Below the pieces are notes generated by a model. That model saw nothing but the letters and a program-made list of their open reading frames with translations. It was not told where the DNA came from and did no database searches. Below, one piece after another: positions 28,900 to 64,000 of a stretch of 64,000 nt of DNA (position 1 is its first letter; every line of letters begins with the position of its first letter). Origin of the DNA: Saprospiraceae bacterium (GTDB lineage Bacteria; Bacteroidota; Bacteroidia; Chitinophagales; Saprospiraceae); the NCBI GenBank assembly GCA_020629255.1, contig JAHDDR010000001.1, positions 8,924 to 72,923 of the forward strand. The letters run 5' to 3'. Position numbers and translations under genes: made by a program.

Positions 28900-29141
28900 A
28901 GTAAACTCTTTTTATTATCTAGAGTTTCTAAATAGTATGTTCATGATTTAAACACTGATTTTATTTTACATCGTCTTTAAGAAAGATAGTGCGTTATCTA
29001 TCTGTCCTTTTATTTGGATGGGGTTTGGTAGCTTGTGATTATATTTTTCTTTTAAAATTTTATGGGATTAATTAATTTTCTGCCCTATCTGGGCAAAAAA
29101 GTGATTTTTTTGACTTAGAGGCTGTTTTAAAACGAGAAGAT

Positions 29142-32180: not shown

Positions 32181-32346
32181 TTTCCTTCCTATATGTGATA
32201 ACTAGCAAACAATGTTATTCCTTTTGTTATTCATAGCCGTCTCTTCGCTAATAAAATTGTCCTCTCCCTTTTTAACATCAAGTAGCGTTTTTTATTAAAA
32301 GCGAATTTATTATTGATCTTGAAGCAACTCTAGATGAACTCACAAA

Positions 32347-34107: not shown

Positions 34108-34109
34108 TA

Positions 34110-35639: not shown

Positions 35640-35658
35640 GGTTCCTTATCCCGTACGA

Positions 35659-38144: not shown

Positions 38145-38146
38145 TT

Positions 38147-41086: not shown

Positions 41087-41089
41087 TTC

Positions 41090-42238: not shown

Positions 42239-42264
42239 GTTTATTCTCCTTTTTAATTAACTAT

Positions 42265-43296: not shown

Positions 43297-43335
43297 GTTT
43301 ATTAATTTGCTCTTTTTGAATTTATTAAAAGGTTT

Positions 43336-47203: not shown

Positions 47204-47240
47204 CCTAAATCGGGTTATCCCTAAATTCGTTTTTGATTCT

Positions 47241-48905: not shown

Positions 48906-48954
48906 ATTCCTATTTGTTAGATCAAGAGAAGATTTCCGTACACATTGCCGTTGT

Positions 48955-50334
48955 TTAAAATGCATTTTCTCTCGTTTTTTTCCCAAATACTGTTAGGAAA
49001 ATAATTTTCAGATCCAAGAAGAAAGACCAGTTCCTCAAGTACCATACATCGTGTTTTGTTCGGCCTTCTTTGGCTTCTTTTGTTTCTGTGGGACCTCGGA
49101 AACCATTGACTTGTGCCCAGCCTGTAATGCCAGGTTTGGTGTAATGGCGTAGGATATAATTTTCCATTTCGTTTCCTAATTCCTTGTCCAAGTAAATTGG
49201 GTGAGGTCTGGGCCCTACGATACTCATGTCTCCTTTGAACACATTGAAAAATTGAGGCATTTCGTCTAAGTTGGTTCTTCTCATGAAGGCTCCGACTTTG
49301 GTTATCCGGCTATCATTCTTGGTGGCTTGTTTTGTATCCGCTTCATCATTAAGAACCATGGAACGAAATTTATGGCAAACAAAATGCTTGTTTTTATATC
49401 CTACTCTTTTTTGGTTGAACATGGCGGGACCGGGAGATTGTATCTTAATCAACAATGCCAGTAAAGGGTAAAGCCAAGACATGATAAATACTATGACGAA
49501 GAATGAAAAGACAATATCGAAGGCTCTTTTTAGAAAACGGTTTCTGAGTCGGGCAATGTCTTCATCTTTTACCGATATGATTGGGTATCCGTTATGCACT
49601 TCCATTTTCACCCCTCTTGAAATCAATTCTACTTCGAGGGGAATGATTTTGAAGTCGATGAAATTCAATAAGGCATAATTTTTCAATTCTCTAATTTCTT
49701 TCCCCCTCATTTCGTTGGAAGCATAGAGAATCAAATTGACTTCATTTTCTTTGATAATGGGATAAATATCTTCCGGCTCGCCTATTTTTTTATATCCTTT
49801 AGGAATATTTTTTCCGATGGATCCTATATATTTTACTTTATTCAGGTGGGCATCGCTGATGGTTTTCTCTACTTTGGGAAGCACATCACAATATCCTATT
49901 ACCAAGTAGTTCAATGTTTCTACTCTTCCTATATGGGGAAGAAATCGTTTCAATATAAATCTTCCTAGAAGAAGGAGGATGATCAACAATACATAAAAGG
50001 CGGGAAAGAATTTGAATTCCCATCCTGTTTCATACAATAAAAAATATATAATACCGAAACCTATGAAGTGCATCATATAATTTTTCAGTACGCTTTTTAT
50101 CTCTACTCTAAAGGTTGTATATTCGAAACGTCCGTATAATTTATTGGCCAGGGTTAGAGTAGAGAACCAAAGGAGGTTGACAATGATCCAGAGGGTCATG
50201 TAATCTTCTTTAAAGATGGAAATATCCCATACTTTATTAAAGTCATCCAATACAATGATCGAGGATGCAAAGAAGGATACATTTAATCCTATCAGGTCAA
50301 TTAATATTCTTATCAGTTTTTTTGAATGCAGCAT
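48955..50334 (-). CDS. Polyprenyl-phosphate sugar phosphotransferase (WbaP/WcaJ-type initiating enzyme)
   Basis: 459 aa. N-terminal TM bundle, then the Bac_transf core: KRAFDIVFSFFVIVFIMSWLYPLLALLIKIQSPGPAMFNQKRVG and DEMPQFFNVFKGDMSIVGPRP. Confidence 0.9.
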   Translation of the reverse strand: MLHSKKLIRILIDLIGLNVSFFASSIIVLDDFNKVWDISIFKEDYMTLWIIVNLLWFSTLTLANKLYGRFEYTTFRVEIKSVLKNYMMHFIGFGIIYFLLYETGWEFKFFPAFYVLLIILLLLGRFILKRFLPHIGRVETLNYLVIGYCDVLPKVEKTISDAHLNKVKYIGSIGKNIPKGYKKIGEPEDIYPIIKENEVNLILYASNEMRGKEIRELKNYALLNFIDFKIIPLEVELISRGVKMEVHNGYPIISVKDEDIARLRNRFLKRAFDIVFSFFVIVFIMSWLYPLLALLIKIQSPGPAMFNQKRVGYKNKHFVCHKFRSMVLNDEADTKQATKNDSRITKVGAFMRRTNLDEMPQFFNVFKGDMSIVGPRPHPIYLDKELGNEMENYILRHYTKPGITGWAQVNGFRGPTETKEAKEGRTKHDVWYLRNWSFFLDLKIIFLTVFGKKTRENAF

Positions 50335-50346: not shown

Positions 50347-51462
50347 TTAGGCTTTTTTCATTTCGTTGAAGAGTTCGATGTATTGATTGGTTATTTTTTC
50401 CCAAGTATAATGGGATGTTATTCTTTCTCGGGAAATCTCTTTTAAGGATAATATCTTTTCTGGTGAAGAATCCACTTCGTCTATTATAGAAGCTAGGTTC
50501 CCTTCTTCTTTTGTGAAATAAATTCCATGTTTTCCGTTAAGTAGCACTTCTCTACTAAATACAGTATCCAAAGCCATAATTCCACAACCATAAGCCATAG
50601 CTTTTAGCAATGTTGGATTCGTCCCTCCAAATTCATGACCATGAAAATACGCAAAACAATTGTGATATAATTCTGCTAATACATTTTGATCATAAACATA
50701 CCCTGTAAAGAAAACCCTATCATCTTTTTCTTGTGTTTTTTTGATGTTCATGGCAAATTCATCTACGTAGGGAACATCTCCAACAATGACTAATTTTTTA
50801 TGTGTTTTGGTTTTTACAAATTCCCTTACGAGGATATCTGCATTATTATCCGGAACAAGACGACCGACAATCAAATAGTAATCGTCTTTTTCGAGATTCC
50901 ATTTTTTGATGAGTTCGGGTTGGGTAGAATGTCTCAAATTAGCTCCATATGCAATAACTGTGCTTGGGGTATTAAATTCCTTGATATAGTGTTTCCCCAT
51001 TTCATCAGAATCGGTAATGATGACATCATATAATTTAGTGGCAATCCAGGATGCCCAATAAAAATATTTACCGCCCAGACCTTTCCATTTTGGGCGAAGC
51101 CATTCCAAGCCGTCTACATTAATGCAGGTTTTTTTTCTGAATATCTTAGAAATTAATCCGAAGGGACCATTGGCAGAATTTACAGCAAGAATAACATCGT
51201 AATCTTGTCTGACCGCATGCCACATAGACTGTACCGAATGAATTAACTGTGCCGTTGTTTTGCCTTTTGTCGTATTGACATAAACAAGCTTGACTCCATT
51301 GACCTCATCCGGGTACTCCTTGAACAAATTTTTATGACAATACACTGTAACTTCGATTCCTTTAGGAACCAAGCGTTCTACCAATTCTTTTACAAAGGTT
51401 TCATATCCGCTATACACATACGGATATCCTCTAGAACCAATAATTGCAACTTTTAAACTCAT
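50347..51462 (-). CDS. GT-B (family 4) glycosyltransferase with DUF1972-type N-terminus (WchF-like)
   Basis: 371 aa. The N-terminus KVAIIGSRGYPYVYSGYETFVKEL is the DUF1972 signature. The C-terminus has HGHEFGGTNPTLLKAMAYG. Confidence 0.8.
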   Translation of the reverse strand: MSLKVAIIGSRGYPYVYSGYETFVKELVERLVPKGIEVTVYCHKNLFKEYPDEVNGVKLVYVNTTKGKTTAQLIHSVQSMWHAVRQDYDVILAVNSANGPFGLISKIFRKKTCINVDGLEWLRPKWKGLGGKYFYWASWIATKLYDVIITDSDEMGKHYIKEFNTPSTVIAYGANLRHSTQPELIKKWNLEKDDYYLIVGRLVPDNNADILVREFVKTKTHKKLVIVGDVPYVDEFAMNIKKTQEKDDRVFFTGYVYDQNVLAELYHNCFAYFHGHEFGGTNPTLLKAMAYGCGIMALDTVFSREVLLNGKHGIYFTKEEGNLASIIDEVDSSPEKILSLKEISRERITSHYTWEKITNQYIELFNEMKKA

Positions 51463-51467: not shown

Positions 51468-52130
51468 TTAATCCGGAAAATTATGAGATGTAAAGGATTT
51501 ATTCATTCCTAAGAATTTTTCGTAATATATTTTACTATCCGGAAATAATACTTTCATTTCCGAATGAGAAATGAGTCTGATTTCATCCAGATATTGATTG
51601 GCAAATTTTTCCGTCCATTTCCGCCCCCTGCTCAATTTTGTTTTTGTTAAAATTGAAAATGCTAAACCTCTTGGGTAAAATTGAAAATAAGGCATGAGAT
51701 AATGCGGTTCCATAAAAAAATATTTATTGGGGGTCTGTACAAAATGGTATTTCCCGACCCTAACCAATTCCTTTGCCATTTTCACTTGGCTTTCGTATGT
51801 GTACAAGTGTTCTATAACCGAATTAGAGAAAGCTAAGTCAAAAGAATTATCTTCATATTCTTTTAGGTTGGTTGCATCTCCTGCCACACTTTTGAATTGA
51901 GGATATTGTGTTGGATACACATCTAGGTTCACGAGTGTTATTTCAATATCATCTCTATTTTGAAATCCTCTATTGATCCAAAAATTTTCCGTTCCGCCCA
52001 CATCTATGATTCGAACCGGTTTATCCATTTTGTTCAATCGTTCTTCAAAAAAGCCAAAACGCTTATTCCTGAATTGATTTCCTAACGATTGTTTCGCATT
52101 CGAACTATCGAGTAGATCTTTGATTTTCAT
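51468..52130 (-). CDS. Class I SAM-dependent methyltransferase
   Basis: 220 aa. Shows VRIIDVGGTENFW (motif I) and FDLAFSNSVIEHL. Confidence 0.7.
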   Translation of the reverse strand: MKIKDLLDSSNAKQSLGNQFRNKRFGFFEERLNKMDKPVRIIDVGGTENFWINRGFQNRDDIEITLVNLDVYPTQYPQFKSVAGDATNLKEYEDNSFDLAFSNSVIEHLYTYESQVKMAKELVRVGKYHFVQTPNKYFFMEPHYLMPYFQFYPRGLAFSILTKTKLSRGRKWTEKFANQYLDEIRLISHSEMKVLFPDSKIYYEKFLGMNKSFTSHNFPD

Positions 52131-52150: not shown

Positions 52151-53308
52151 TTATGATTGCTCTAAAACACTTTTCAAGTGTCCGCTCATTCTTTCGGTGT
52201 ATTTCTCTAGGGAGAACTCTTCTGTTACCCTGCGTTTACCCGCTTCCCCAAAAGATTGCCTTTGTTGTTCATTATCAAATAAAGGGGCAAAAATTTCTTT
52301 AGCTTTTTGTGCATCACCTATCGGTACATGATATCCAGTTACTCCATGTTTTATCATTTCCAAAGCTCCGCCTTGTGCGGTAGCAATAATGGGTTTGCTT
52401 GCATGCATCGATTCCAAAATTACCGTTGGAAAAGGGTCCGGCAATATGGAAGGGAGGACAAAGATATCCAAGGCGCTCATGATATCATGGATATCTTTTC
52501 TGAATCGCATTTGTATTACATTATCGATCAATCCTAATTTTTCGATTTTCTCGTTGATTTCGTCGTAAAGGTATTCGTATCCCGGGAAAGCATCTCCTAC
52601 CATTAGGTATTTTATTTTTGGATGTAGCGTTTTCATTTCTGCGGCCATGTCCAAAAAATAACTTTGTCCTTTCCAATAATGGACCCGACCAATCATCCCG
52701 ACCAAAAGAGTATCATCATCCAATCCGATTTCTTTTCGGATTTTTCCCCTGTCTCCATTGGAGAACTGTTCGCCTTCTATGCCATTATGGATAACCACAA
52801 TCTTACCGTCGTCACCACCATAAACACCATCCCAATGTTTTTTTACCGCATTGGAAACCACAATAGATTTATCACTTCTATTTTTGATAATCTTAGCAAT
52901 GAAATTGGCAAAAAATTTCGGTTTTTCTATTATCTCATGTATGTGTAAAACATGCTTAGCCATTCCTCCTCTCGTTGCCCACGCTCCAGCTAAAACCGCC
53001 GTTGTATTGGAATAGACAATATCTATATTATGCTGCCTAATTATTTGTTTAATCCTTGAAGAGGCCTTAGACAAATTATAGGCTCTATTGATCATACCTA
53101 TCGGATTGAAGTATTTTCTTCTTAAAATACCCAAAGGCATAATAATAACTTCCGCTCCTACTTCTTCTAATTTTTCTTTTAGCATACCATCTTCGGGAAG
53201 ACAGACTACTGCTTTTTTCAAATCATCTCCGAGAGCCTTTATGGTTTGAACCAAAATTTTACTTGCCCCATACATTCCAGAAGAGGAATGCAAAAAAAGA
53301 ATATTCAT
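52151..53308 (-). CDS. GT-B (family 4) glycosyltransferase
   Basis: 385 aa. Shows MNILFLHSSSGMYGASK and the E-x7-E region LPSILPDPFPTVILESMHASKPIIATAQGGALEMIKHGVTGYHV. Confidence 0.85.
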   Translation of the reverse strand: MNILFLHSSSGMYGASKILVQTIKALGDDLKKAVVCLPEDGMLKEKLEEVGAEVIIMPLGILRRKYFNPIGMINRAYNLSKASSRIKQIIRQHNIDIVYSNTTAVLAGAWATRGGMAKHVLHIHEIIEKPKFFANFIAKIIKNRSDKSIVVSNAVKKHWDGVYGGDDGKIVVIHNGIEGEQFSNGDRGKIRKEIGLDDDTLLVGMIGRVHYWKGQSYFLDMAAEMKTLHPKIKYLMVGDAFPGYEYLYDEINEKIEKLGLIDNVIQMRFRKDIHDIMSALDIFVLPSILPDPFPTVILESMHASKPIIATAQGGALEMIKHGVTGYHVPIGDAQKAKEIFAPLFDNEQQRQSFGEAGKRRVTEEFSLEKYTERMSGHLKSVLEQS

Positions 53309-53392: not shown

Positions 53393-54313
53393 TTACCATG
53401 CCGAAATATCTACTTTATATTTTTCAGCAAGAAATTTTGTACTTGTTAAAAATTCTTCGTTATCTAATTTTTGGAGTAAATTATGTTCCTCGTCTGTATT
53501 TTTTGAATTGGGTTTTGCATTAAATTTTTCGTGGAGTTTCTTAAATGTATTTTTGAGTTTGCTATCACCATACCTAAAAGAAGAAGGCAAAGGTAAGGCT
53601 TCATACAATTTTCTAATCGCTTGGGTTTTAACCTCGTAACTTTCGTTGTATTTTTTGAAATCGTAATTATTAAAATAGCTCGTATCCACCTCCACTTTGT
53701 CTAAAATAAGGTTCATGTATTTCTGAGGTTCTTTCACAAATGCTTCAAAAGAAAAAACGATTACAGCATTTTTCCCAATTATTTCCGCCACTTTATTTAT
53801 GTATTGATCATATTTAGATTGTTCGATCGAATTATTGAGAACATTGTGTTCTTTTAACAATGGAGATTTAGAATAAACCATTTTTATATACTCGGAAAAA
53901 CTTATTTTATTATCCAATATACCCAACCTACTTTGAGCATACTTGTACATAGAAAAAATTCTTTTTGATGGTTTCCTCAAACAAAAAACGACAATAGGTT
54001 TAGGTGTAAAATCAGATAATATTTTTAAAAATGTTTCTTGATACATGTAATCAGGCGTTGCATCTAATAAAACCTGATTTTTTGTCGCCTCTTTAAATAA
54101 GTCATCATATCCATTATAACCTTCATCATGAAAATTAGTCAACAATTGCGACTGATTATATGATGGGGGAAAATATCCTTTATCTAAAAAATAGCAGGTC
54201 TCTTTTACTTGTGGCCCATAAATATCTGGATGATCGTTTAAATATCTAAATAAAGATGTTGTTCCACATCTAGGGGCTCCTGCTATAATTATTCTTTTTC
54301 TTTTTTCAAACAT
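53393..54313 (-). CDS. Sulfotransferase (PAPS-dependent)
   Basis: 306 aa with no signal peptide. 5'-PSB loop IIIAGAPRCGTTSLFRYL. 3'-PB-like motif FCLRKPSKRIFSMYKY. Confidence 0.8.
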   Translation of the reverse strand: MFEKRKRIIIAGAPRCGTTSLFRYLNDHPDIYGPQVKETCYFLDKGYFPPSYNQSQLLTNFHDEGYNGYDDLFKEATKNQVLLDATPDYMYQETFLKILSDFTPKPIVVFCLRKPSKRIFSMYKYAQSRLGILDNKISFSEYIKMVYSKSPLLKEHNVLNNSIEQSKYDQYINKVAEIIGKNAVIVFSFEAFVKEPQKYMNLILDKVEVDTSYFNNYDFKKYNESYEVKTQAIRKLYEALPLPSSFRYGDSKLKNTFKKLHEKFNAKPNSKNTDEEHNLLQKLDNEEFLTSTKFLAEKYKVDISAW

Positions 54314-54572
54314 ATTTTATTGTATCTAAATATATATGCTATAAGTACTCGGTCAAATTAAATGAATATTCTTTTTTCCCTATACTTCGTTAAAATACTC
54401 CGATGATTTATTAACCTTATTTAAAAATGATTCAATGATCTATTTACAAGCCATTGTTTCCTAAATACTTCAGCTATTTTCACCTCGTAGCTAGGGGTAC
54501 GAAACTCAAAAGGAGCTTCTCTTAAAAATCAAACACTTACAACTAGTTTCACCAACCACTTTTTAAACAAGT

Positions 54573-55862
54573 TCATTCTTTATATTGTCTTAAATAAAAA
54601 ATCACCAACATAAAAACCATGCTCACCCAACTCGAAAATCTATCCAACACCAAAACCGTAAGTCCTGATGTAAACAGAAATATCATGACGATAGGAAACA
54701 TGGAATATCTGATGTCCATTAATTTTTTCAAAATAGCATACAACTTGATAAACAAGTAAGAATATATCAACATCAAAGCTAAACCCCCATTAATAAATAT
54801 GCTCAAGAATTGGTTGTGTGGATGAGGAATATAATCTGGATTGGGCCAAATTTTTACTTTTTGCATACCATGAATGAACAGTTCTTTGTTTGATCCAAAG
54901 CCACTCCCAAATAAATAATTCTCTAATCCAAACATTTCTGAGATCGAATAAGCATAAATCGACCACATTCTTCCTCTGTTGGTAAGGAATGAAGGTTCGA
55001 ATATTATATTTTTTCGATGTGACAATATTTTATCAGATAAAAGAGCTGCGATCTCCTGATAGTATAAAGCAAATATCATTAATCCTCCAAAACAGCACAT
55101 AAAAAAAATCATTCTTTGGGCAGACATTTGCAACTTTACATGACAATACACAAAATAAGTCAAAAGAAGAAACGTTCCTGCAATTGTACTTTTTATCAAA
55201 ATCAACATTTGTAATAAGAAAAAAAGCACAAACAAAGGTAGAATAAGAAACTTGGCATTTGTCCAAACCGTGAGCATAGAAAACAATAAATAATTGATAT
55301 TTGCCAACTCACTCGGATGGTATAAAAACCCATTGACCCTTGCTACTGCCTGTCCATCTATTCTTGTTACATTTACATAATCAAATGCCCAAATGGTTAA
55401 TGGTGCCAAGCCTATGAATTGCAGAACAGCAATTGACAATGGCACAAAAGACATCGCTAGATAAATGTACAACAGTTTCCATAAACCTTTCCTAATTATT
55501 AATTTATGTTCTACAAGAATTAAAAAATAATAAAAAAGAAAAGGTCCTACTAATGTATTAATAGCTTCCCCTACATCATACTTAACAGAACAAGCCGCAT
55601 TGAGAAAAAGAAAACATCCAATTACGAATGCGTGTATTTTCCATTTTTTTATTAATAATCCTAATGAAATTAATACCAATAAGGCAATTCCTCCATTAAA
55701 AAACCAATGTAATTTAAAGGAGCCAATTTTTGGGGCGATGTTTCCCACTATAATTACAAAGGGAATGAAGCTACATAATACAAGAATCCAAACTTGAAGT
55801 ATTCCTACTACACTTTTTTGCGTCCCGTTCAAAGTTCTAACCTCAGATGTAACAGATGTCAT
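54573..55862 (-). CDS. wzy: O-antigen polymerase/ligase-family membrane protein (second Wzy-type)
   Basis: 429 aa, polytopic. Shows RGRMWSIYAYSISEMFGLENYLFGSGFGS and PHPHNQFLSIFINGGLALM, matching the Wzy_C motif pattern. Confidence 0.6.
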   Translation of the reverse strand: MTSVTSEVRTLNGTQKSVVGILQVWILVLCSFIPFVIIVGNIAPKIGSFKLHWFFNGGIALLVLISLGLLIKKWKIHAFVIGCFLFLNAACSVKYDVGEAINTLVGPFLFYYFLILVEHKLIIRKGLWKLLYIYLAMSFVPLSIAVLQFIGLAPLTIWAFDYVNVTRIDGQAVARVNGFLYHPSELANINYLLFSMLTVWTNAKFLILPLFVLFFLLQMLILIKSTIAGTFLLLTYFVYCHVKLQMSAQRMIFFMCCFGGLMIFALYYQEIAALLSDKILSHRKNIIFEPSFLTNRGRMWSIYAYSISEMFGLENYLFGSGFGSNKELFIHGMQKVKIWPNPDYIPHPHNQFLSIFINGGLALMLIYSYLFIKLYAILKKLMDIRYSMFPIVMIFLFTSGLTVLVLDRFSSWVSMVFMLVIFYLRQYKE

Positions 55863-56752
55863 TTCTTCCAGTGAGAAAGATCTTTCTCTAATAAGTTTTC
55901 TAATTTATCAAGGTCTTCTCTGAAATAATTCTGTAGGTCTTTTTTTACATTTTCGGGCAATTGTTCCTTTTTGGTTTTTCGCTGAGTCATGTTTTTCTTT
56001 TTAATTTTTTTGACTAAGGATAAAAAACCTGTTTTTTCCAAAAATGGGAGCATGAATTGTAATCCATTCGAATGGATTATCATTTTAGCTTTTCCTATAA
56101 AATTAACCAAAGATTGGCTCTTTGGCTGTAAACCTACGTTTACTTTTTCATCAAACCCTTCGGGATAAAAAACCTCTACTTCTAGGAATTCGTATAATTC
56201 CTTTAAGAATGTTTTATTGTCTTTTTTGACATCTTCAAAAAATAATATTTTAATATTTTCTCTTGGAAAGATGTCAAAATATTTTTTTAGCTTTTGATAG
56301 TATAAACTCGTATGCAAAAACTTTTCAGGCAATTTTTCTATGGCATCCTGATAATTCTTAAATACTCCTATGCCATTTTGTTTGCTATATAAATACTGTG
56401 AAAAAGATCGTTCGATAGGATGTCTGAGAATAGCAAAAATTTTTACATCCGGATTATATTTATAAATATCTTCTGCACAATTTTCCATGGCTAAATATAC
56501 GGGCGTTATTTCTCCCTTTATCTGACTTTGTTTAGCATTGCGAAAATAATGATGATACCAATTTAATGGTTTTTTATAATTGTGATTTTTTGTTACAAAG
56601 TCCTGAGGCATGAATTGATTAAAATAATTCAATTCTTTTTCTTCTTCGGGGTAATATACCCCTGGATGTTTCCTCAGGATTTCTGCCACCCACGATGTTG
56701 CAGATTTCGATGCTCCTATTCCTATAAATTCGATTCTTTCTTTTTCTTCCAT
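55859..56752 (-). CDS. Sulfotransferase (PAPS-dependent)
   Basis: 297 aa. 5'-PSB loop FIGIGASKSATSWVAEIL. 3'-PB-like motif AILRHPIERSFSQYLY. 4-nt overlap with the downstream wzy. Confidence 0.8.
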   Translation of the reverse strand: MEEKERIEFIGIGASKSATSWVAEILRKHPGVYYPEEEKELNYFNQFMPQDFVTKNHNYKKPLNWYHHYFRNAKQSQIKGEITPVYLAMENCAEDIYKYNPDVKIFAILRHPIERSFSQYLYSKQNGIGVFKNYQDAIEKLPEKFLHTSLYYQKLKKYFDIFPRENIKILFFEDVKKDNKTFLKELYEFLEVEVFYPEGFDEKVNVGLQPKSQSLVNFIGKAKMIIHSNGLQFMLPFLEKTGFLSLVKKIKKKNMTQRKTKKEQLPENVKKDLQNYFREDLDKLENLLEKDLSHWKK

Positions 56753-56761
56753 TACTATTTT

Positions 56762-58510
56762 TTATTGGGTATTCATTACACCAATAGTAATTGAGTATCC
56801 TTCTATATTTACTTGCCCCTGTTCTATACTGTTCTGTATCATCCCATCATGTGGTTCTGGATCTGTTGGCATATCATCTAAAGGTCTGGAAAGTGTTTGG
56901 ATGCCCCATTCGCCGTTAGGCAAATTCAGTGTATAATTTTCGCCTGTCTTATTGAGAAATAAAAATCCCTTTTTGTTTCCTTTGGTAAAAACCATGCATC
57001 TTACCGGCAAAAATGTTTTGTTTTTATATTTCAGAATTTTGCATTCTACCAATTCTTCCGTTCCGGAAAGGGAGGCATATTCCCCTCCTTCAAATTCTCC
57101 TAATATATTTTCTAATAAAGAATGAGAAACAATATTCCAACCTTGTGTAAAGGTTGGATTTTCGGGATCTGCAACCGGGTTCCATTTCATAATAGACCGC
57201 CCGAGTTTCCCTCTGTTTTTCACCATCAGCATGTGCCTCAAGATAGCATATATGGGGTATTCCTGGCTTTCTTCCATATATGCCAACATGTAATCGAGAT
57301 TACCCAATTCCATAACCCACCATAAAGGATCGATATGTTTGGTGCGATCTGATTGATCCGGGTTTTCAAACTCTATCCCAGCGATTCCAATTTCTGTTAG
57401 TAAGATGGGTAATCCATTAAAATAATCGTTACCTAGAGGAGCTACCTTATCCGCTTCATATTGTATCCCTGCAAATAAAAACCTAATTCTTTTATCTAGA
57501 GGATGTTCTTGTATTTTAGGTGGTATATAAAGATATTTGTGCAATACCACAGAATTAAAAAATGGATCTTCATTATTGGCATCATTCAAACTACTGTTCC
57601 ATTCTTTTGCCCTTCCCCTTTGGAGATGCCCTTCCCCAGTTACGGCCACCATGCTATTAGGAAATACATTCATGATGTGTTGACCAATCGGTCGGCATCG
57701 TTCTACATACTCCTCCAATGTCAGAAGATTCTTTTTCCATTTTAATTCCAAACCATGTTCATTCCCTAATTCCCACATTGGGAAATCTTGATCGGGGTAT
57801 TTTTCTTTAAGTCGATTCACTAAATTAATATTATAATTAGCGTCTTTATGGTAAATTGGTAAAGTAATGGTTGGCTTTGCCCCAACATTATTACATAGTT
57901 CTAGAAATTCATCCAAGGTGATTTTTACATTCTTGGATGCTTGCATGTTTCTTTGCAAACCTGGGTGATGGATTTTATTTTTATTATCCATGACCATTTC
58001 GGTATCCCAATCGTAAAAATGGGCGTCCGTTCCTCCCGGAAACCGTAAAACTTGATTAGGAATTTTACTAATGGCTTCTACCAACGGAGGATAATTGATA
58101 AAAGCCTTCATTCCTTTCTGGGGGACAAAAGAGGCAAACATAGAACCATAGCCTACCATGTTTTCTCTAAAATCATACATTGAAACCCCATCAAAATTTA
58201 TATCGAATGTTTTATTCATAGTATTGTTATTATTTCCTTCTATCGGTTCTTCCTCTATTGTTACTTCCGTTGTAGATTCTGTATCTTCTTCAACGAGATT
58301 TGCTTCTTCTATTATCGTTTCTTTTTCTTCTCCTATTATTACATCCTCTTCAAGGTTTACGACTACGGTTTTAGGCGAATCTATTTTATCGTCCATTACC
58401 GTTGTATGTGATTCTATATCATCATGTTTTTTGTTATTACTTAGAGTACATGATGATAGTATCCCTATTGCTATTATAAAAAAAACATCTCTATTCCTCA
58501 TTTTATTCAT
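56762..58510 (-). CDS. Lipoprotein glycoside hydrolase-like enzyme, clan GH-A (TIM barrel) type
   Basis: 582 aa. Lipobox GILSSC, then an acidic low-complexity linker (EEDVIIGEEKETIIEEANLVEEDTESTTEVTIEEEPIE). LRFPGGTDAHFYDW, MWELGNEHG (candidate acid/base Glu) and ILLTEIGIAG (candidate nucleophile, ~125 aa later) follow. GH family not assignable by eye. Confidence 0.55.
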   Translation of the reverse strand: MNKMRNRDVFFIIAIGILSSCTLSNNKKHDDIESHTTVMDDKIDSPKTVVVNLEEDVIIGEEKETIIEEANLVEEDTESTTEVTIEEEPIEGNNNNTMNKTFDINFDGVSMYDFRENMVGYGSMFASFVPQKGMKAFINYPPLVEAISKIPNQVLRFPGGTDAHFYDWDTEMVMDNKNKIHHPGLQRNMQASKNVKITLDEFLELCNNVGAKPTITLPIYHKDANYNINLVNRLKEKYPDQDFPMWELGNEHGLELKWKKNLLTLEEYVERCRPIGQHIMNVFPNSMVAVTGEGHLQRGRAKEWNSSLNDANNEDPFFNSVVLHKYLYIPPKIQEHPLDKRIRFLFAGIQYEADKVAPLGNDYFNGLPILLTEIGIAGIEFENPDQSDRTKHIDPLWWVMELGNLDYMLAYMEESQEYPIYAILRHMLMVKNRGKLGRSIMKWNPVADPENPTFTQGWNIVSHSLLENILGEFEGGEYASLSGTEELVECKILKYKNKTFLPVRCMVFTKGNKKGFLFLNKTGENYTLNLPNGEWGIQTLSRPLDDMPTDPEPHDGMIQNSIEQGQVNIEGYSITIGVMNTQ

Positions 58511-58522
58511 AGCTTATTAAGT

Positions 58523-59383
58523 TCAGAATTCTATTTTATACTCTTCTTGGAGCTTTCTATTCGCATCTTGATAATAACTATTTAGTTCTTCTTTTATCTG
58601 GGGATCCATTTTGGGAATTTTCAAATCCTTCATATTGATTCTCTCTACAAATGTTTTCACTTTCAATCTCATTTCCGGAGACACTATTCTGGAAACGACA
58701 TCTTTGAATTTACCTCGACTATGTACCCCAAAAAGAGAAGCTAGCCAGACGTATTTTATTTGTTTTGATTTATTCTTAATTTCATTTTTAACTTGGAAAG
58801 GCTTTAACTCTGCAAATTGAAAAATATTCTCACAAACAGCTACTGCATCTTTTTTAAAATCATTAAAATTGATAACCTTAATTTGTTTCCGATCAAAATA
58901 CTTCTCTACTGTTTGTAAGTAATCATAATAATTTCCTCGTTGCACATAATCACAACTTCGAATCATGAAATCATTTCCCGGAAATCTTTCAGCTGAAGAG
59001 GTTTTATAAATATCTTCAAATCTCTCTGCTCTTTCTGCTCCAATACTTTTCATGTACCAAAATGCAGAATATGCCCTGTCTGCCGGGTTTCTTAAAATAA
59101 CTATAATCTTGGCATGTGGATTGTGATCCTTAAGCCTTTCCAAAGCCTTCTCGCTTTCAAAAATCCCTACATTTTTTGCTAGGGCGATTTTATTGTGATC
59201 CGTTTCAGAAAAATAATGATTATACATTTTTTCATATCCTTGATTATAATGATTATCATGGATAAAGAAACCTATCTCACCTGTAATATGAGAATTAATT
59301 TCCGGGTGTTGCCCCAATAATCTGAATAATGATGATGTTCCTGCTTTTTGGGTTCCTATAATTATTAAGTCTAATTTTTGCAT
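58523..59383 (-). CDS. Sulfotransferase (PAPS-dependent), heparan-sulfate-sulfotransferase-like P-loop
   Basis: Start moved to M19 (ATG 59383), which removes a 41-nt overlap. 5'-PSB loop LIIIGTQKAGTSSLFRLL. 3'-PB-like motif VILRNPADRAYSAFWY. Confidence 0.85.
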   Translation of the reverse strand: MQKLDLIIIGTQKAGTSSLFRLLGQHPEINSHITGEIGFFIHDNHYNQGYEKMYNHYFSETDHNKIALAKNVGIFESEKALERLKDHNPHAKIIVILRNPADRAYSAFWYMKSIGAERAERFEDIYKTSSAERFPGNDFMIRSCDYVQRGNYYDYLQTVEKYFDRKQIKVINFNDFKKDAVAVCENIFQFAELKPFQVKNEIKNKSKQIKYVWLASLFGVHSRGKFKDVVSRIVSPEMRLKVKTFVERINMKDLKIPKMDPQIKEELNSYYQDANRKLQEEYKIEF

Positions 59384-59396
59384 GACAGCACTTTTT

Positions 59397-60728
59397 CTAT
59401 TCTTGTCTAATTGTAATTCCGACCCACTCAAGTTCACTAATTTTTTGTTCTAGTGAATCAACTGTTGTTCCGATGATGTTTTCTTTTTCATATGGATCAT
59501 TAACTAAATCATAAAACCTTTTTTGTCCATCTATTTTAACTATCAATTTGTAATCCATATCAGAAACTGCCCAACCAGAAACCATATCAGTATAATTGTA
59601 ATGCCTTTTATTGTCTATGGTTTCTCCAGCCAACAAACCTTTAAAACTATAACCATCATTAATTACCGGCCCACCCGTGCTTGTCAATTCTGCTATTGTT
59701 GGAAAAAGATCCGTTGTTGAAACTAATGCCTGTTCCCTTTCACCCCTTCTGGTTACTCCGTTCCCAGCAACAACCATTGGTACATTGATTCCGCCTTGAA
59801 AAAGTGTCCCTTTGGATTGGTTGGGTAAAAAGGGTTCCCTTAATACTTCTTTAGGTGTACCATTATCTGAAATAAAAATAATGGTTGTATTCTCTAAAAC
59901 TGTAGGATCAATTGATGAAAGCAGCCTTCCCATTTCAGTATCCATTGCTTCTAACATGGCGTGATAATATGGAACAGGGTTGGCTTCAATGTCAGCTTCT
60001 CCTACTGGTAAATTTCCTTGACTGTGCAAATCATTGGGTGGCAAATGGAATGGGGTGTGTGGTGCGTTGTAAGCCAACCATAAAAACCATGGAGAAGTTC
60101 CCCGATCTTCTATCCAACGAATGGCTGCGTTGGTATTGGCTGTAGTTGCATAGGTATTTGAGTTTTTTGTATTTCCATTTACAGTTCTCCTCCATTTGTA
60201 GTAACTATCCAAAGTACCCCTAATCAAACCATCAAAATAGGGAATTCCCATTTTTCTTGGATAATCGTTATCATTTACTTCATTGTTCAGATGCCATTTC
60301 CCTATAATGGATTGACAATAAGTATTGGGTGCTTTTTCTTCAATGTATTGCTGAATAGTTTGCTCTGATACTGGCAATGTATTTTGATCTGGTATATTAA
60401 CTACACCTGTTCTCACTCCATGTTTTCCCGTTATTAGAGATGCTCTAGTGGGTGCACACATGGGAGAAGACCAAACATTATCAAATACGACGCCATCATT
60501 ACATAAGGATTCCAAGGTTGGCATGTTGGGTAATATACTATTGTGGTCATAGCAGGGTGAGGAATCTAATCCTAAATCATCAGCAATAATAAAAAGTACA
60601 TTTCCTCGATTAGAGTTGATTGGCCTAACACAATCGTCCAACTCAATATCTTTGCATGCCCATACCGTTAACACAATTATTGCTCCTACAAAAAATACTC
60701 GCCGTTTTATACTATTTTTTCTAAACAT
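59397..60728 (-). CDS. Cys-type (formylglycine) sulfatase, lipoprotein
   Basis: 443 aa. Lipobox LTVWAC followed by KDIELDD. Metal-site motif NVLFIIADDLGLD. Formylglycine motif SSPMCAPTRASLITGKHG (C-x-P-x-R). Confidence 0.9.
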   Translation of the reverse strand: MFRKNSIKRRVFFVGAIIVLTVWACKDIELDDCVRPINSNRGNVLFIIADDLGLDSSPCYDHNSILPNMPTLESLCNDGVVFDNVWSSPMCAPTRASLITGKHGVRTGVVNIPDQNTLPVSEQTIQQYIEEKAPNTYCQSIIGKWHLNNEVNDNDYPRKMGIPYFDGLIRGTLDSYYKWRRTVNGNTKNSNTYATTANTNAAIRWIEDRGTSPWFLWLAYNAPHTPFHLPPNDLHSQGNLPVGEADIEANPVPYYHAMLEAMDTEMGRLLSSIDPTVLENTTIIFISDNGTPKEVLREPFLPNQSKGTLFQGGINVPMVVAGNGVTRRGEREQALVSTTDLFPTIAELTSTGGPVINDGYSFKGLLAGETIDNKRHYNYTDMVSGWAVSDMDYKLIVKIDGQKRFYDLVNDPYEKENIIGTTVDSLEQKISELEWVGITIRQE

Positions 60729-62116
60729 TACTTCCGTTTTAATAAAAATATGGGTAGGGTTATTATTTTAAATTCTCTATATACCAATATCGCTGCTAAA
60801 ATGTTCTGTAATATAATCGCCGTTGTTGATGCTATCGCTGCTCCTATTGTTCCAATTAATGGTACGAGAATGATATTTAGGCCCACAATTGTAATGGCGG
60901 ATACCATCATGGTGTTCCTCATTAATTTTTCTCGTCCTCCTACTATCAATATCAAGCCGACGGGTCCTAACATCACTCCGATGAGTTTACCAATAAGTAA
61001 AACTTGGAGCAATGTGCCTCCTCCTGTAAAATCATTACCAAAAATGGACATGGTGAAATTGGCAAAAATGATTAGAAATAAAAACACCGGCAAAACCAAA
61101 AGCAATACTAATAGGGTTGCTCTCTGCGTGGTTTTTTCTAATAGATCTTTTTGTCCTTTGGCAATGAATTGCCCAATTTTTGATGTTAGTATCGTATTAA
61201 AAGCTATCAAGAATAAGGATGTAATGATGGCTACTCTTTGGGCTATTGCAAATTGTCCGATTTGGGCATCTTCAACCCAAAATGCAAGAAGGAACGTTGG
61301 TGCCCAAATAATGATTTGTTGAAATAATGACAGACCAAACAGGGGCATGCTACTTTTCATCAAATCTTTTGCTTCGAAATCTTCTGTGGGTTCTTCATTA
61401 TTTTGATAAATCTTTTCGTTACTGAAATACCAAAATAATATTCCTACTACTGCCATGATACATACGGCTACATCGTAGGTCCATATCATGCCTATCAAGC
61501 CAAATTCGGGAACGATGGTCAATACTCCAATAATGGCCAGTGCCGGCAAGAAACTCTTCATTGCCAAACTCATAGGAATCCTTTTCAATCCTTTGAAGGC
61601 TTCGGTTAAACTACCCAAAAACATCAAAGGAATAATCGTAAGGATAAACCATCTGATGGGTTCTCCGAGGTTGGGTCTATCCAGGATTTCTTTTGCTAAA
61701 AGATCGCTTCCTAAATATAACAGAACAGAGACGAGCACTCCTGAAAGCAGACTAATCTTTGCTCCTAGATTGAAAACTTTTCGAACCGTACTCCAATCTT
61801 TCTTGGCGGCATATATGGGAACGAACCTCATAATGGCTTTGTCGATACCCAAAATGCCCAACATAACTGCTATGTTTACTATTGAAAAGCAAAGAAAATA
61901 TTTCCCTACTTCACTGGCTCCCAACGTTCTCGATAATAATACATTAAATAGGAACTGAAACCCTGCAGCAGATATTTTTATGATAAAGGAAATAGATGCC
62001 CATTTCGCTATATCCCTTATATGCCCATCCTTAAAAAAGGATTGGAGTTTTACTTTTATGCCTTGTGATTGTACAGGTAGTTCCTTATCGAGAATCTCTT
62101 CTTCAATTCTATCCAA
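60728..62116 (-). CDS. wzx: Second oligosaccharide-unit flippase (MOP superfamily, Wzx-type)
   Basis: 462 aa, polytopic. Shows ISFIIKISAAGFQFLFNVLLSRTLGASEVGKYF. 1-nt overlap with the sulfatase start. Confidence 0.75.
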   Translation of the reverse strand: MDRIEEEILDKELPVQSQGIKVKLQSFFKDGHIRDIAKWASISFIIKISAAGFQFLFNVLLSRTLGASEVGKYFLCFSIVNIAVMLGILGIDKAIMRFVPIYAAKKDWSTVRKVFNLGAKISLLSGVLVSVLLYLGSDLLAKEILDRPNLGEPIRWFILTIIPLMFLGSLTEAFKGLKRIPMSLAMKSFLPALAIIGVLTIVPEFGLIGMIWTYDVAVCIMAVVGILFWYFSNEKIYQNNEEPTEDFEAKDLMKSSMPLFGLSLFQQIIIWAPTFLLAFWVEDAQIGQFAIAQRVAIITSLFLIAFNTILTSKIGQFIAKGQKDLLEKTTQRATLLVLLLVLPVFLFLIIFANFTMSIFGNDFTGGGTLLQVLLIGKLIGVMLGPVGLILIVGGREKLMRNTMMVSAITIVGLNIILVPLIGTIGAAIASTTAIILQNILAAILVYREFKIITLPIFLLKRK

Positions 62117-62125: not shown

Positions 62126-63076
62126 TTATTTTACGACCGTCTTAAAGTATTCGTAGGTTCTACGAAGTCCTTCTGCCCTATCAATTTTCGGTTCCCAATC
62201 CAATACTTCTTTAGCTAAGGAAATATCCGGTCTTCTTCTTTTCGGATCATCTTTTGGTAAAGGTTTATAACATAGTTTGGATGTTGTTCCTTCTACCAAT
62301 TTCAATATTTCACGCCCAAAATCATTCATCGTGATTTCAGCCGGGTTCCCTACGTTTACCGGAAGGTGGTAATCGCTCATCAATAGACGATAAATTCCTT
62401 CTACTAAATCATCTACATAACAGAACGAACGGGTTTGTTCCCCATCTCCGAAAACAGTCAAATCTTCTCCTCTTATGGCTTGAGAGAAAAATGCCGGAAG
62501 CACCCTACCATCGTCGGTTCTCATTCTAGGTCCGTATGTATTGAAAATTCTTACAATTCTTGTTTCCAAACCATGGTACGTATGATATGCCATCGTTAAT
62601 GCTTCTTGGAACCTTTTGGCTTCATCGTATACCCCTCTAGGTCCAATCGGATTTACATTTCCCCAATAATCTTCTTTTTGTGGATGAACCAATGGATCTC
62701 CATATACCTCGGAAGTGGAAGCAATTAGCATTCTCGCATTTTTTACTCTTGCTAATCCTAGTAGATTATGTGTTCCCAAAGAACCTACTTTCATGGTTTG
62801 GATGGGCATTTGCAAGTAATCTATCGGACTGGCCGGAGAGGCAAAATGTAGAATGTAATCTAATTCTCCTGGTACGTGAACGAATTTACTCACATCGTGG
62901 TGGTAAAATTCGAAGTCTTTTCTTGGAAACAGGTGTTCGATATTTTTAATGTTTCCTGTTAGGAGGTTATCCATACCAATTACATGGTATCCTTCTTTCA
63001 GGAAACGATCACTCAAATGTGATCCTAAAAAGCCTGCTGCTCCTGTAATGAGTACTCTTCCTGATGATTTTTCCAT
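62126..63076 (-). CDS. UDP-glucuronate decarboxylase (UDP-xylose synthase)
   Basis: 316 aa. Shows [50 protein letters not shown] and [10 protein letters not shown], typical of the UXS subgroup of extended SDRs. Confidence 0.85.
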
Positions 63077-63103: not shown

Positions 63104-63658
63104 TTAGTCCTCGAATGGCACCAACTCTTGGATGGTCGGTCCGATTTTATCTTTATCTGAAACGATGAATTTATTTTCGGGTATGCCCCAATCTATATTG
63201 ACTGTTGGATCGTTGTAAATGAGGCTTCCTTCACTTTCTTTCGAATACAGATTATCGCATTTATAGGCAAATACAGTGTTATCTTCCAGCACGACAAAGC
63301 CATGTGCGAAACCTCTGGGCACGAATAGCTGGTGCTTGTTTTCTTCGCTCAGTATTGCTCCAACGTATTGTCCATAAGTAGATGATCCTTTCCGTATATC
63401 TACGGCAACATCATATACTTTTCCTTTGACAACTCTTACCAGTTTTGCTTGGGCGAATGGTGGTCTTTGGAAATGTAAGCCTCTTAATACTCCGTAAGAA
63501 GATTTGGATTCGTTGTCCTGAACAAAATCGGGTAGAAAACCGGTTTGTTTTTTGAATTTTTGGGCATTGAAGCTTTCGAAAAAATATCCTCTTTCGTCGG
63601 CGAATACCCGAGGTTTGATTAATAGAACATCTGGTATGGCTAATGGAGTGATTTCCAT
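63104..63658 (-). CDS. rfbC: dTDP-4-dehydrorhamnose 3,5-epimerase
   Basis: 184 aa. Shows FADERGYFFESF, LRGLHFQ, KLVRVVKGKVYDVAVDIRKGSSTYGQ and GFAHGF. Confidence 0.9.
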   Translation of the reverse strand: MEITPLAIPDVLLIKPRVFADERGYFFESFNAQKFKKQTGFLPDFVQDNESKSSYGVLRGLHFQRPPFAQAKLVRVVKGKVYDVAVDIRKGSSTYGQYVGAILSEENKHQLFVPRGFAHGFVVLEDNTVFAYKCDNLYSKESEGSLIYNDPTVNIDWGIPENKFIVSDKDKIGPTIQELVPFED

Positions 63659-63666: not shown

Positions 63667-64000
63667 TTATTTTCTTATGATTTTCATGAGATATTTACCG
63701 TAACCACTCTTTATCAATGGTTGTGCAATTCGTTCTACTTGTTCTTGGTCGATGAATCCCATTTTATAGGCGATTTCTTCAATACAACCTACTTTGTATC
63801 CTTGTCTTTGTTCGATGACGCGTACAAATTCTGAGGCATCACTCAAAGAATTAAACGTTCCTGTATCTAGCCAAGCGGTTCCTCGATCCATGATGCCCGC
63901 TTTGAGTTCTCCTTTTTCGAGATAGTATTTATTGACATCTGTTATCTCGTATTCTCCTCTTGCCGATGGTTGGATATTTTTGGCTACATCTACTACTTTA
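63667..64000 (-). CDS. rfbA: Glucose-1-phosphate thymidylyltransferase, 3' part (runs off the right window edge)
   Basis: The frame stays open upstream of the listed Met. Manual translation of 63892-64000 gives ..KNIQPSARGEYEITDVNKYYLEKGELKAGIMDRGTAWLDTGT.., the conserved RfbA C-terminal region. Confidence 0.9.
   Translation of the reverse strand, partial: KVVDVAKNIQPSARGEYEITDVNKYYLEKGELKAGIMDRGTAWLDTGTFNSLSDASEFVRVIEQRQGYKVGCIEEIAYKMGFIDQEQVERIAQPLIKSGYGKYLMKIIRK

Follow-up and report, generated by a model that had tools for sequence, protein, structure and literature searches.

The DNA analysed here, hereafter the window, is a 64-kb stretch of contig JAHDDR010000001.1 from a Saprospiraceae bacterium, the whole of which is given over to glycan biosynthesis, with nearly all of its genes on the minus strand. 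Our concern is with a Wzx/Wzy-type module, also on the minus strand, which spans no less than the interval between rmlA, cut by the window edge, and a sugar dehydrogenase gene at 45908, and in which three sulfotransferase (ST) genes are found among genes for a polymerase, a flippase, a sulfatase, and a glycoside hydrolase (GH)-like lipoprotein. A second Saprospiraceae genome, the metagenome-assembled genome (MAG) GCA_020631355.1, possesses a collinear locus at 41-94% amino-acid identity and is referred to here simply as the MAG. The central genes of the module, along with a fourth ST gene from elsewhere in the window, are as follows, with PAPS standing for 3'-phosphoadenosine 5'-phosphosulfate.

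53393-54313 (-): ST1, cytoplasmic PAPS-type sulfotransferase (Sulfotransfer_3, E = 4e-10, 40.6 bits)
54314-54572 (no strand): AT-rich intergenic gap between the Wzy and ST1 genes, 259 nt (1 nt in the MAG)
54573-55862 (-): Wzy-type polymerase, O-antigen-ligase-like family (Wzy_C, E = 2e-7, 31.4 bits versus a cutoff of 31.7)
55859-56752 (-): ST2, cytoplasmic PAPS-type sulfotransferase (Sulfotransfer_1, E = 3e-12, 46.8 bits)
56762-58510 (-): clan GH-A-like (GH51/GH79-type) lipoprotein (from predicted fold; lipobox ILSSC)
58523-59383 (-): ST3, cytoplasmic PAPS-type sulfotransferase (Sulfotransfer_1, E = 1.5e-19, 70.9 bits)
59397-60728 (-): S1 formylglycine-dependent carbohydrate sulfatase, lipoprotein (PF00884, E = 9e-42; CAPTR motif)
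60728-62116 (-): Wzx (MOP-family) flippase, multi-pass membrane protein (Polysacc_synt, E = 6e-21, 75.5 bits versus a cutoff of 28.2; MatE)
31440-32180 (-): ST4, fourth sulfotransferase, in a separate Wzx/Wzy module (Sulfotransfer_3, E = 2e-15, 57.9 bits)

Open reading frame (ORF) calling reproduced all seven of the genes which the initial annotation had placed between 53393 and 62116. Pfam matches or predicted folds likewise bear out its naming of the ST neighbours as a Wzy-type protein, a GH-A-like lipoprotein, a Cys-type sulfatase, and a Wzx, with the Wzy_C match falling just below cutoff. The Wzy-like protein has 11 transmembrane-like segments and is 41-42% identical to orthologs found at the same position, and Wzx orthologs in loci L004, L090, and L091 are 57-59% identical. 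The start of ST3 at the ATG at 59383, as initially annotated, also agrees with orthologs, though the longest ORF opens instead at a GTG at 59437.

The spacing of these genes had been described as tight, i.e., as a 4-nt overlap plus gaps of 9-13 nt, and this holds for the overlap of the ST2 and Wzy genes as well as for gaps of 9, 12, and 13 nt. Left unmentioned, however, were a 1-nt overlap between the Wzx and sulfatase genes (TAATG) and the 259-nt gap between the Wzy and ST1 genes. That gap has no Rfam match (as seen in an Rfam scan of 45-64 kb), and its sigma-70 promoter and terminator counts equal those of shuffled sequence, the promoter scan being of a type which is ill-suited to Bacteroidota. 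It may be an internal promoter or instead an insertion scar.

Gene order is retained in the MAG, where it runs rmlC, short-chain dehydrogenase/reductase (SDR), Wzx, sulfatase, ST3, ST2, Wzy, ST1, acyltransferase, GT4 glycosyltransferase, DUF1972-GT4, initiating phosphoglycosyl transferase, Wzi, dehydrogenase, with the acyltransferase replacing a methyltransferase of the window. A smaller core is retained on two metagenomic contigs, as Wzx, sulfatase, ST3, ST2, and Wzy in the one (L090; 6 kb) and as Wzx, sulfatase, and ST3 in the other (L091; 3 kb).

Sulfotransferases and PAPS supply

All four STs exceed the Pfam gathering scores for Sulfotransfer_1 and Sulfotransfer_3, which are 22-27 bits. 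The initial annotation reported a 5'-phosphosulfate-binding (PSB) loop along with a 3'-phosphate-binding (3'-PB)-like motif in ST1 through ST3, and both are present. The loops, at residues 10-20, are GAPRCGTT, GASKSATS, GTQKAGTS, and GGQRSGST for ST1 through ST4, respectively (pattern used: [KR]-x-[GA]-[TS]-[TS]). The 3'-PB motif, at approximately residues 97-112 in all four, is LRxPxxRxxSx[FY] (pattern used: R-x-P-x-x-R-x-x-S). The two motifs are kept as well in ST orthologs from the MAG and from contig L090. To these may be added a third motif, E-x-x-[FY]-F, which is found in all four proteins and which aligns with the catalytic-base segment, EVHFF, of heparan sulfate (HS) 3-O-sulfotransferase-1 (3-OST-1), that is, with EIGFF of ST3 lying opposite EVHFF of PDB entry 1zrh. 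The catalytic base of HS 3-OST-1 we take to be Glu90.

Sequence matches of all four STs include a bacterial sulfotransferase structure, 3rnl, plus human HS 3-OST/NDST structures. ST1 thus matches 3rnl at E = 1.6e-13 and NDST at E = 1e-4, ST2 matches 3rnl at E = 1.6e-25 and HS 3-OSTs at E = 2e-9, ST3 matches both 3rnl and HS 3-OST-1 at E = 1e-14, and ST4 has NDST and 3-OST among its PDB matches. Fold comparison covered ST3. Its AlphaFold (AF2) model, with a pLDDT of 86, retrieves with Foldseek, as top matches, 3rnl (TMt 0.78), HS 3-OST with bound PAP (TMt 0.71-0.75), and NDST1 with bound PAPS, the fold thus matching that of PAP- or PAPS-bound sulfotransferases. By family, by motifs, and for ST3 by fold as well, the four proteins therefore are supported as real PAPS-type carbohydrate sulfotransferases, with sulfuryl transfer being their predicted activity.

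An alternative is that the ST genes are decayed or inactive, such that the product of the locus is an ordinary, non-sulfated glycan. ST2 indeed has an alanine in place of the usual P-loop glycine, the P-loop of ST1 has an arginine instead of a lysine, and genes for PAPS synthesis are not seen in the window. Both variants are conserved in orthologs, however, that is, at 55% identity for ST1 versus its MAG ortholog and at 72% identity for ST2, with GASKSATS retained in the latter and with all three motifs intact. RxG-type PSB loops furthermore are the usual form in PF13469 enzymes, NodH among them, all of the ORFs are full length, and the syntenic locus has its own dedicated cysCDN. Inactivity of these enzymes consequently strikes us as extremely improbable.

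The STs had been described as lacking signal peptides, and a hydrophobic-segment check agrees. ST1 through ST3 have no such segments and ST4 has a single, internal one (residues 82-100), so that none of the four begins with an N-terminal signal peptide. Because the STs are cytoplasmic and PAPS is cytoplasmic too, sulfation would take place prior to flipping, as was originally proposed and as is also the model for synechan (PMC8205485).

Where the PAPS comes from was less evident from the window, which was initially described as lacking PAPS-supply genes. This is literally so, as tblastn with CysC, CysD, and CysN yields no match within the 64 kb. In the MAG, however, cysC-cysD-cysN are found directly upstream of rmlB-rmlA-rmlC, and the window ends within rmlA, which continues past its edge, i.e., two genes short of where cysCDN would be expected. 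Given this synteny, cysC-cysD-cysN probably lie just past the window edge, with their apparent absence a consequence of truncation.

How common are such loci? An alignment of ST3 scanned against 185,579 species-representative genomes finds more than 570 relatives in many phyla. Among the 80 best ST3-family loci, with ST neighbours counted within 10 kb, at least two STs are present in 26 and a Wzx homolog is present in 17. In five of the 80, cysC, cysD, and cysN accompany the STs, these being from the Saprospiraceae MAG, Pontimicrobium sp. IMCC45349, Flagellimonas profundi, a Segetibacter MAG, and an Acidobacteria MAG, and in the latter four cysCDN precede Wzx plus the STs. In sequence data, then, Wzy-type loci that pair tandem STs with Wzx and PAPS genes are common, and culturable marine Flavobacteriaceae are among their carriers.

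The embedded sulfatase and GH-like lipoprotein

The sulfatase and the GH-like lipoprotein were initially treated as genes that are simply interleaved with the STs. For the sulfatase this undersells it, as no other accessory of the module is so conserved or so distinctive. By its motifs it is a canonical exported, formylglycine-dependent S1 sulfatase, whose activity is predicted: CAPTRASLITG, DD50-51, GKWH, SDNG, and K306 are invariant across a clade of four members, and a lipobox (...VWAC|KD, Cys25), judged from sequence, is conserved in orthologs, as are several extra cysteines. Its nearest PDB entries are an S1_16 kappa-carrageenan sulfatase (9e-41) and N-acetylgalactosamine (GalNAc)-6-sulfatases. 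No sulfatase maturase, whether anaerobic sulfatase-maturating enzyme (anSME) or formylglycine-generating enzyme (FGE), is present in the window.

Sulfatase homologs number more than 3,000 at E < 1e-40, their identity levelling off at 45-51%, and those that were sampled from this plateau are stand-alone genes in housekeeping neighbourhoods, i.e., neither in polysaccharide utilization loci (PULs) nor in glycan loci. The three closest homologs, at 55-62% identity, by contrast each have Wzx on one side and an ST3 ortholog on the other, and are those of the MAG and of contigs L090 and L091. When the 120 best matches are placed in a neighbour-joining tree, the four operon-linked sulfatases form an exclusive clade, being 56-72% identical to one another and at most 50% identical to the other 116. 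In all four of the loci, furthermore, the start of the sulfatase gene overlaps the stop of Wzx. Metagenomes from JGI supplied 37 additional relatives, all at no more than 52% identity and none of them adjoining STs or Wzx.

The subfamily nearest to the operon clade, consisting of sulfatases of approximately 435 aa, has thousands of members in marine Bacteroidota, at 45-51% identity. In two Flavobacteriaceae (L087 and L088, 8001-9314 in each) this sulfatase is a single gene beside those for a tetratricopeptide-repeat (TPR) protein, a cupin, a peptidyl-prolyl isomerase (PPIase), and release factor 3 (RF3). As this is outside of any PUL, the question arises of an endogenous substrate.

A similar combination is seen at a much greater phylogenetic distance. 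In three loci on MAG chromosomes of sponge-symbiont Poribacteria (L016, L017, and L021; approximately 7500-20900 in each), a flippase-like protein, two STs, a seven-transmembrane protein, and a homolog of the GH-like lipoprotein with WELGNE occur together along with a homolog of the Wzi-like protein described below, and two of the three (L017 and L021) also encode a sulfatase with a Tat signal, in which the formylglycine motif, CxPSR, is intact. The combination of functions has thus recurred independently in a phylum far removed from Bacteroidota. Two Acidimicrobiia loci with "sulfatases" beside STs (L027 and L030) were dropped as parallels as the formylglycine motif is lacking. Because the sulfatase's clade, its position, and its overlap with Wzx are conserved, and because the combination recurs independently in Poribacteria, the exported sulfatase is most likely a selected component of such biosynthetic loci rather than a stray catabolic gene.

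This bears on a different view of these genes, namely that the sulfatase and GH-like lipoprotein are catabolic, serving in the degradation of foreign sulfated glycans of algae or hosts, and are present in the module by chance, with no functional link to it. The closest solved sulfatases (carrageenan, GalNAc) do come from degradative systems, marine Bacteroidota are rich in such genes, and the GH-like gene is an insertion that is specific to this genome. No SusC/SusD or other PUL gene is found nearby, though, and a PUL-type catabolic reading of the sulfatase was rejected for this reason and for the conserved biosynthetic context. The sulfatase's position, Wzx overlap, and clade are in addition conserved in four divergent loci, with the sampled sulfatases outside of the clade not found in PULs either. 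Chance insertion of the pair we thus view as very unlikely, although it may still hold for the GH-like gene on its own.

The GH-like lipoprotein, of 582 aa, consists of a lipobox, an acidic disordered linker of approximately 75 residues, and a folded core. The linker (approximately residues 25-98) is low-complexity sequence that is rich in Glu, Thr, and Ile, has a pLDDT of less than 50, and is missing from a 474-aa MAG homolog. There is no NCBIfam match nor, even at E <= 1, a Pfam match to this protein. The AF2 core, with pLDDT mostly of 70-97, is modelled as a (beta/alpha)8 barrel plus beta-sandwich, the Foldseek neighbours of which include GH51 enzymes (E = 4e-21), arabinofuranosidases among them, and GH79 beta-glucuronidase/heparanase (E = 5e-18 to 4e-17). 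WELGNE251 and TE373 are invariant in the family alignment and, on the predicted fold, the protein would be a clan GH-A member for which these supply the candidate acid/base and nucleophile. A distant relative (P0009) passes Glyco_hydro_79n. The family is large and uncurated, with 556 cluster representatives at E <= 1e-30 in an exhaustive profile search.

Since the GH-like gene is absent from the MAG operon, it can be described as an accessory that is specific to this genome. The MAG homolog, at 56% identity, is found instead approximately 70 kb away in an unrelated neighbourhood. Approximately 5 kb from this stand-alone homolog the MAG has another sulfotransferase gene, for a protein of 376 aa (L001, 15823-16953), outside of glycan clusters. 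A 771-aa protein from a JGI metagenome (P0010) has a Sulfotransfer_3 domain (residues 4-216), with no signal peptide region ahead of it, fused to a GH51/79-like region (residues 293-770). A general fusion of ST and GH-like domains was considered on this basis and rejected, as only this protein is fused and eight other long members lack an ST domain, leaving a weak hint only.

What might a sulfatase be doing within a locus which otherwise adds sulfate? One answer is that the pathway is as proposed here, but that the sulfatase, together with the GH-like lipoprotein, serves in housekeeping or turnover, either clearing mislocalised or excess polymer from the periplasm or releasing and dispersing capsule. 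AlgL, PslG, PelA, and BcsZ are exported hydrolases or lyases of a bacterium's own polymer, encoded within the corresponding exopolysaccharide operons, and glycan-degrading enzymes in biosynthetic operons have firm precedents with alginate, Psl, Pel, and cellulose. A GH26 gene occurs within the two-ST Wzx/Wzy cluster wps-1 of Actinoplanes, the sulfatase and GH-like genes are but one gene apart in the window, and both types of gene are present in Poribacteria loci. A sulfatase by itself cannot depolymerise, however, and three of the four sulfatase loci are without an operon hydrolase or lyase, while the conserved overlap with Wzx would suggest a role with each cycle rather than in occasional clearance. 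Turnover we accordingly consider somewhat doubtful, albeit worth keeping in mind.

Favoured instead is a post-flipping editing of one class of sulfate, i.e., because the sulfatase is kept without a depolymerase in three of the four loci and because it is coupled to Wzx. A stronger version of editing, which we find unlikely, is that the sulfatase is an obligatory biosynthetic enzyme, removing, at the membrane's outer face, one of the three sulfates, which would be only transiently added in the cytoplasm. In such a sulfation/desulfation cycle, built into glycan assembly, the transient sulfate could, for instance, help Wzx to grip the unit that it flips, or else mask a hydroxyl that is later used by Wzy.

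A candidate pathway and the rest of the window

The remaining genes of the module, from the window edge inward, are the following.

63670-64000 (-): rmlA, 3' part, glucose-1-phosphate thymidylyltransferase (tblastn, 81% identity to residues 180-288 of MAG RmlA)
63104-63658 (-): rmlC, dTDP-4-dehydrorhamnose 3,5-epimerase (PF00908, E = 4e-72; TIGR01221, 255 bits, above cutoff)
62126-63076 (-): extended SDR, UDP-glucuronate decarboxylase / 4,6-dehydratase-like (Pfam matches to GDP_Man_Dehyd and Epimerase)
52151-53308 (-): GT4 glycosyltransferase (Glycos_transf_1, E = 1e-33; 71% identity to MAG ortholog)
51468-52130 (-): S-adenosylmethionine (SAM)-dependent methyltransferase (Methyltransf_11, E = 5e-7; in the MAG a hexapeptide acyltransferase instead)
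50347-51462 (-): DUF1972-GT4, rhamnosyltransferase-like (DUF1972 and Glycos_transf_1; 83% identity to MAG ortholog)
48955-50334 (-): initiating polyprenyl-phosphate hexose-1-phosphate transferase, WcaJ type (Bac_transf, E = 1e-63, 214 bits)
47241-48986 (-): Wzi-like outer-membrane capsule-assembly protein, tentative (55% identity to a MAG protein with precomputed PF14052, Caps_assemb_Wzi)
45908-47323 (-): TviB-like nucleotide-sugar 6-dehydrogenase (UDPG_MGDP_dh domains; TIGR03026 above cutoff; same place in the MAG)

The rmlC product is 77% identical to its MAG ortholog, and the extended SDR is 94% identical to its own, with every NCBIfam model for the latter scoring below cutoff. The best NCBIfam match of the DUF1972-GT4 protein is the Cps2T beta-1,4-rhamnosyltransferase (E = 1.6e-72, below the equivalog cutoff). 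The initiating transferase scores 361 bits with TIGR03025, which is above cutoff, and 380 bits with the WcaJ model, which is below its cutoff of 411, and the dehydrogenase scores 507 bits with the TviB model, below the cutoff of 592. The Wzi-like protein begins with a signal-like N-terminal segment.

From these genes a pathway can be suggested, the whole of which we think likely: 45.9-64.0 kb would be a single operon-like module that makes, by the Wzx/Wzy route, a sulfated polysaccharide of the capsule type, probably with rhamnose in it, with editing by the sulfatase following export. Synthesis would start with the loading by the WcaJ-type transferase of a hexose-1-phosphate, likely glucose-1-phosphate (Glc-1-P), onto undecaprenyl phosphate. 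The Cps2T-like DUF1972-GT4, likely adding rhamnose, along with the second GT4 would then give rise to a repeat of approximately three sugars on undecaprenyl pyrophosphate. The methyltransferase and the three cytoplasmic, PAPS-dependent STs would modify this lipid-linked unit, the former by O-methylation and the latter by sulfation at up to three positions, with PAPS most likely coming from cysC-cysD-cysN a short way past the window edge. The sulfated unit would be flipped by Wzx and polymerised by Wzy, with the Wzi-like protein aiding retention of the polymer at the cell surface. Outside of the cytoplasm, the S1 lipoprotein sulfatase, made together with Wzx, would strip a subset of the sulfate esters, and in this genome the GH51/GH79-like lipoprotein may also trim or release chains. 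A composition resembling ulvan or rhamnan sulfate (rhamnose, uronic acid, xylose) was considered but is not claimed, as neither the SDR nor the dehydrogenase can be tied to a given reaction. What the analysis establishes are the gene identities, motifs, folds, cytoplasmic or exported locations, conserved synteny, and sulfatase clade, whereas the acceptor, the sugars, the order of the steps, the upstream PAPS genes, and the roles of the sulfatase and GH-like lipoprotein are proposals.

A number of points weigh against this pathway. The Wzy_C score is 0.3 bits short of cutoff, and that family also holds ligases and O-oligosaccharyltransferases. The Wzi-like assignment comes from orthology, the protein's own Pfam search (E <= 1) having given nothing useful, and no Wza, i.e., outer-membrane polysaccharide export (OPX) protein, nor Wzc, i.e., polysaccharide co-polymerase (PCP), is found among window ORFs of at least 150 aa, though these may be encoded outside of the window. 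Both upstream cysDNC in this genome and an anSME or FGE maturase elsewhere in it are predictions. The sulfatase-containing core is known from four loci, two of them on short metagenomic contigs, with the metagenome scan adding none, and in the other three of those loci the GH-like gene is outside of the operon. No observation separates editing from turnover as the role of the sulfatase, and the sulfated glycan, in this as in related organisms, is a prediction from genes.

Several of the same points can be turned to a different reading, which is that the STs modify a target other than capsule, whether a protein O-glycan, a single O-unit on lipopolysaccharide, or a glycolipid. This would be consistent with the breadth of the Wzy_C family and the sub-threshold match to it, and with Wza and Wzc not being seen in the window. 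The general O-glycosylation system of Bacteroidota also uses a Wzx-type flippase, and known bacterial STs, including NodH, Stf0, and KpsS, have glycolipids or lipo-oligosaccharides as acceptors (PMC11625862). The gene set, however, is that which is classic for capsule or O-antigen, including a WcaJ-type initiating transferase and an ortholog of a protein annotated as Caps_assemb_Wzi, and the Wzy-like gene sits between two of the ST genes while overlapping one of them. The product, moreover, would be a sulfated surface glycan still. Such a target seems to us quite unlikely.

Elsewhere in the window, 24728-44529 (-) is a second glycan module that looks complete, with a Wzx (34110-35639), a Wzy (27643-28899; Wzy_C 59.9 bits), and a pathway for a nonulosonic acid (PseB-like, DegT, NeuB, CMP-transferase, GNAT, class-III aminotransferase, aldo-keto reductase). 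A LIC12162-family transferase and two hexapeptide acyltransferases are present as well, and a second initiating transferase was not seen. The initial annotation's fourth sulfotransferase, ST4, is indeed a sulfotransferase but belongs to this separate module rather than to that of ST1 through ST3, its gene lying between those for the LIC12162-family transferase and the DegT aminotransferase and overlapping the latter. The second module thus possibly leads to a second sulfated glycan.

Other stretches are noted for completeness. At 17380-23107 (-), a biosynthetic stretch encodes proteins resembling heparinase II/III and glucuronyl C5-epimerase, together with a formyltransferase and a 707-aa protein in which a zinc-dependent alcohol dehydrogenase domain is joined to a GFO/IDH/MocA oxidoreductase, with a UDP-GlcNAc 2-epimerase adjoining, that is, folds of the glycosaminoglycan-modifying type in a context of synthesis. 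Two ORFs are without Pfam or NCBIfam match, one of 557 aa with an N-terminal signal-like segment (13068-14741, -) and one of 464 aa that is soluble (44504-45898, -). Beside the latter is a pyridoxal phosphate (PLP)-dependent decarboxylase of the ornithine/diaminopimelate (Orn/DAP) type (43336-44529), an uncommon neighbour within a glycan cluster. At 390-2258 (+) are two FkbM/RfbT-like methyltransferase paralogs in tandem, and at 3308-4771 (-) is a protein of 487 aa that ends in a sorting domain for type IX secretion, which, like the synteny with the Saprospiraceae MAG, points to Bacteroidota as the source.

Known systems

The general design of this module is already known, both from published clusters and from recurrent loci, and what is distinctive is the biosynthesis-embedded sulfatase. 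The initial annotation's short list of genetically defined sulfated bacterial glycans is in this respect out of date, as synechan, wps-1, and the Vibrio KMM 8419 and Cobetia loci have been published. As to novelty, no description of a multi-ST Wzx/Wzy locus in Bacteroidota was found in a literature search which left most subscription journals outside its reach, in agreement with what had been supposed. The locus type nevertheless is not rare in genomes, as the survey of ST3-family loci indicates. A sulfatase inside a sulfated-glycan biosynthesis cluster likewise was not found described, with the same limit on journals.

Closest in assembly is the synechan (xss) cluster of Synechocystis sp. PCC 6803, which is a Wzx/Wzy cluster with two STs for which, as proposed here, more than one PAPS-type ST would modify the lipid-linked unit on the cytoplasmic face before flipping (PMC8205485). 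It differs in being cyanobacterial and plasmid-borne, in possessing two STs and eight glycosyltransferases, and in having no sulfatase, and PAPS genes are not mentioned (PMC8205485). Its product, in addition, has been chemically shown to be sulfated, whereas the window module is known from its genes (PMC8205485). The wps-1 cluster of Actinoplanes missouriensis, published in 2026, combines Wzx/Wzy/Wzz with two STs, a GH26, and a methyltransferase (PMC13390465). It thus resembles the window in its joining of Wzx/Wzy, STs (there of two subfamilies, one of them HS-ST-like), a methyltransferase, and a glycoside hydrolase, but differs in coming from Actinomycetota, in having a GH26 where the window has a GH51/79-like protein, and in lacking a sulfatase, and the sulfation of its product is inferred as well (PMC13390465).

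A different type is represented by the ST-rich, cysNDC-containing capsule loci of Vibrio sp. KMM 8419 (PMC11641403) and Cobetia marina KMM 1449 (PMC11766843), the product of which is a sulfated rhamnose-glucose polysaccharide. Here a single large surface-glycan locus brings together rml genes, three STs, and a second, dedicated set of cysNDC (PMC11641403). A product of rhamnose and glucose would also fit with the window's Glc-1-P transferase, its rhamnosyltransferase-like glycosyltransferase, and the cysCDN-rml arrangement, as we infer. Assembly differs, being by ABC transporter (Kps) with no Wzy, so sulfation of the growing cytoplasmic polymer is possible there, and no sulfatase is reported in the cluster.

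Marine Bacteroidota are seen as main degraders of sulfated algal and animal glycans, with their sulfatases read as catabolic, and one mat metagenome study, in which Bacteroidetes MAGs were without sulfotransferases, cast the phylum as degraders. The conserved operon suggests that these bacteria also add sulfated polysaccharide to marine organic matter and that they coat themselves with polyanionic, host- or alga-like glycans. It is relevant too to the engineering of microbial production of defined sulfated polysaccharides. The embedded sulfatase clade, in turn, offers a testable case of an endogenous, biosynthetic sulfatase substrate, with bearing on thousands of orphan S1 sulfatases.

With regard to enzymes that act on an organism's own polymer, AlgL, PslG, PelA, and BcsZ cleave glycosidic bonds, and none of them is known to remove a substituent such as sulfate, on which the window sulfatase would act. 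Nearer in kind are Sulf1 and Sulf2, the eukaryotic extracellular HS 6-O-endosulfatases, which are of the formylglycine type and which edit a pattern that has been laid down by intracellular HS-type STs. The resemblance is at the level of enzyme families only, i.e., an exported formylglycine sulfatase in combination with HS-type STs. The window sulfatase, unlike Sulf1 and Sulf2, is a small lipoprotein that lacks the hydrophilic domain of the Sulf enzymes, and its editing role is hypothetical. Were an obligatory, Wzx-coupled sulfatase nonetheless to prove true, then it would be the first prokaryotic counterpart of Sulf-type editing, and marine Bacteroidota would be producers, too, of sulfated glycans.

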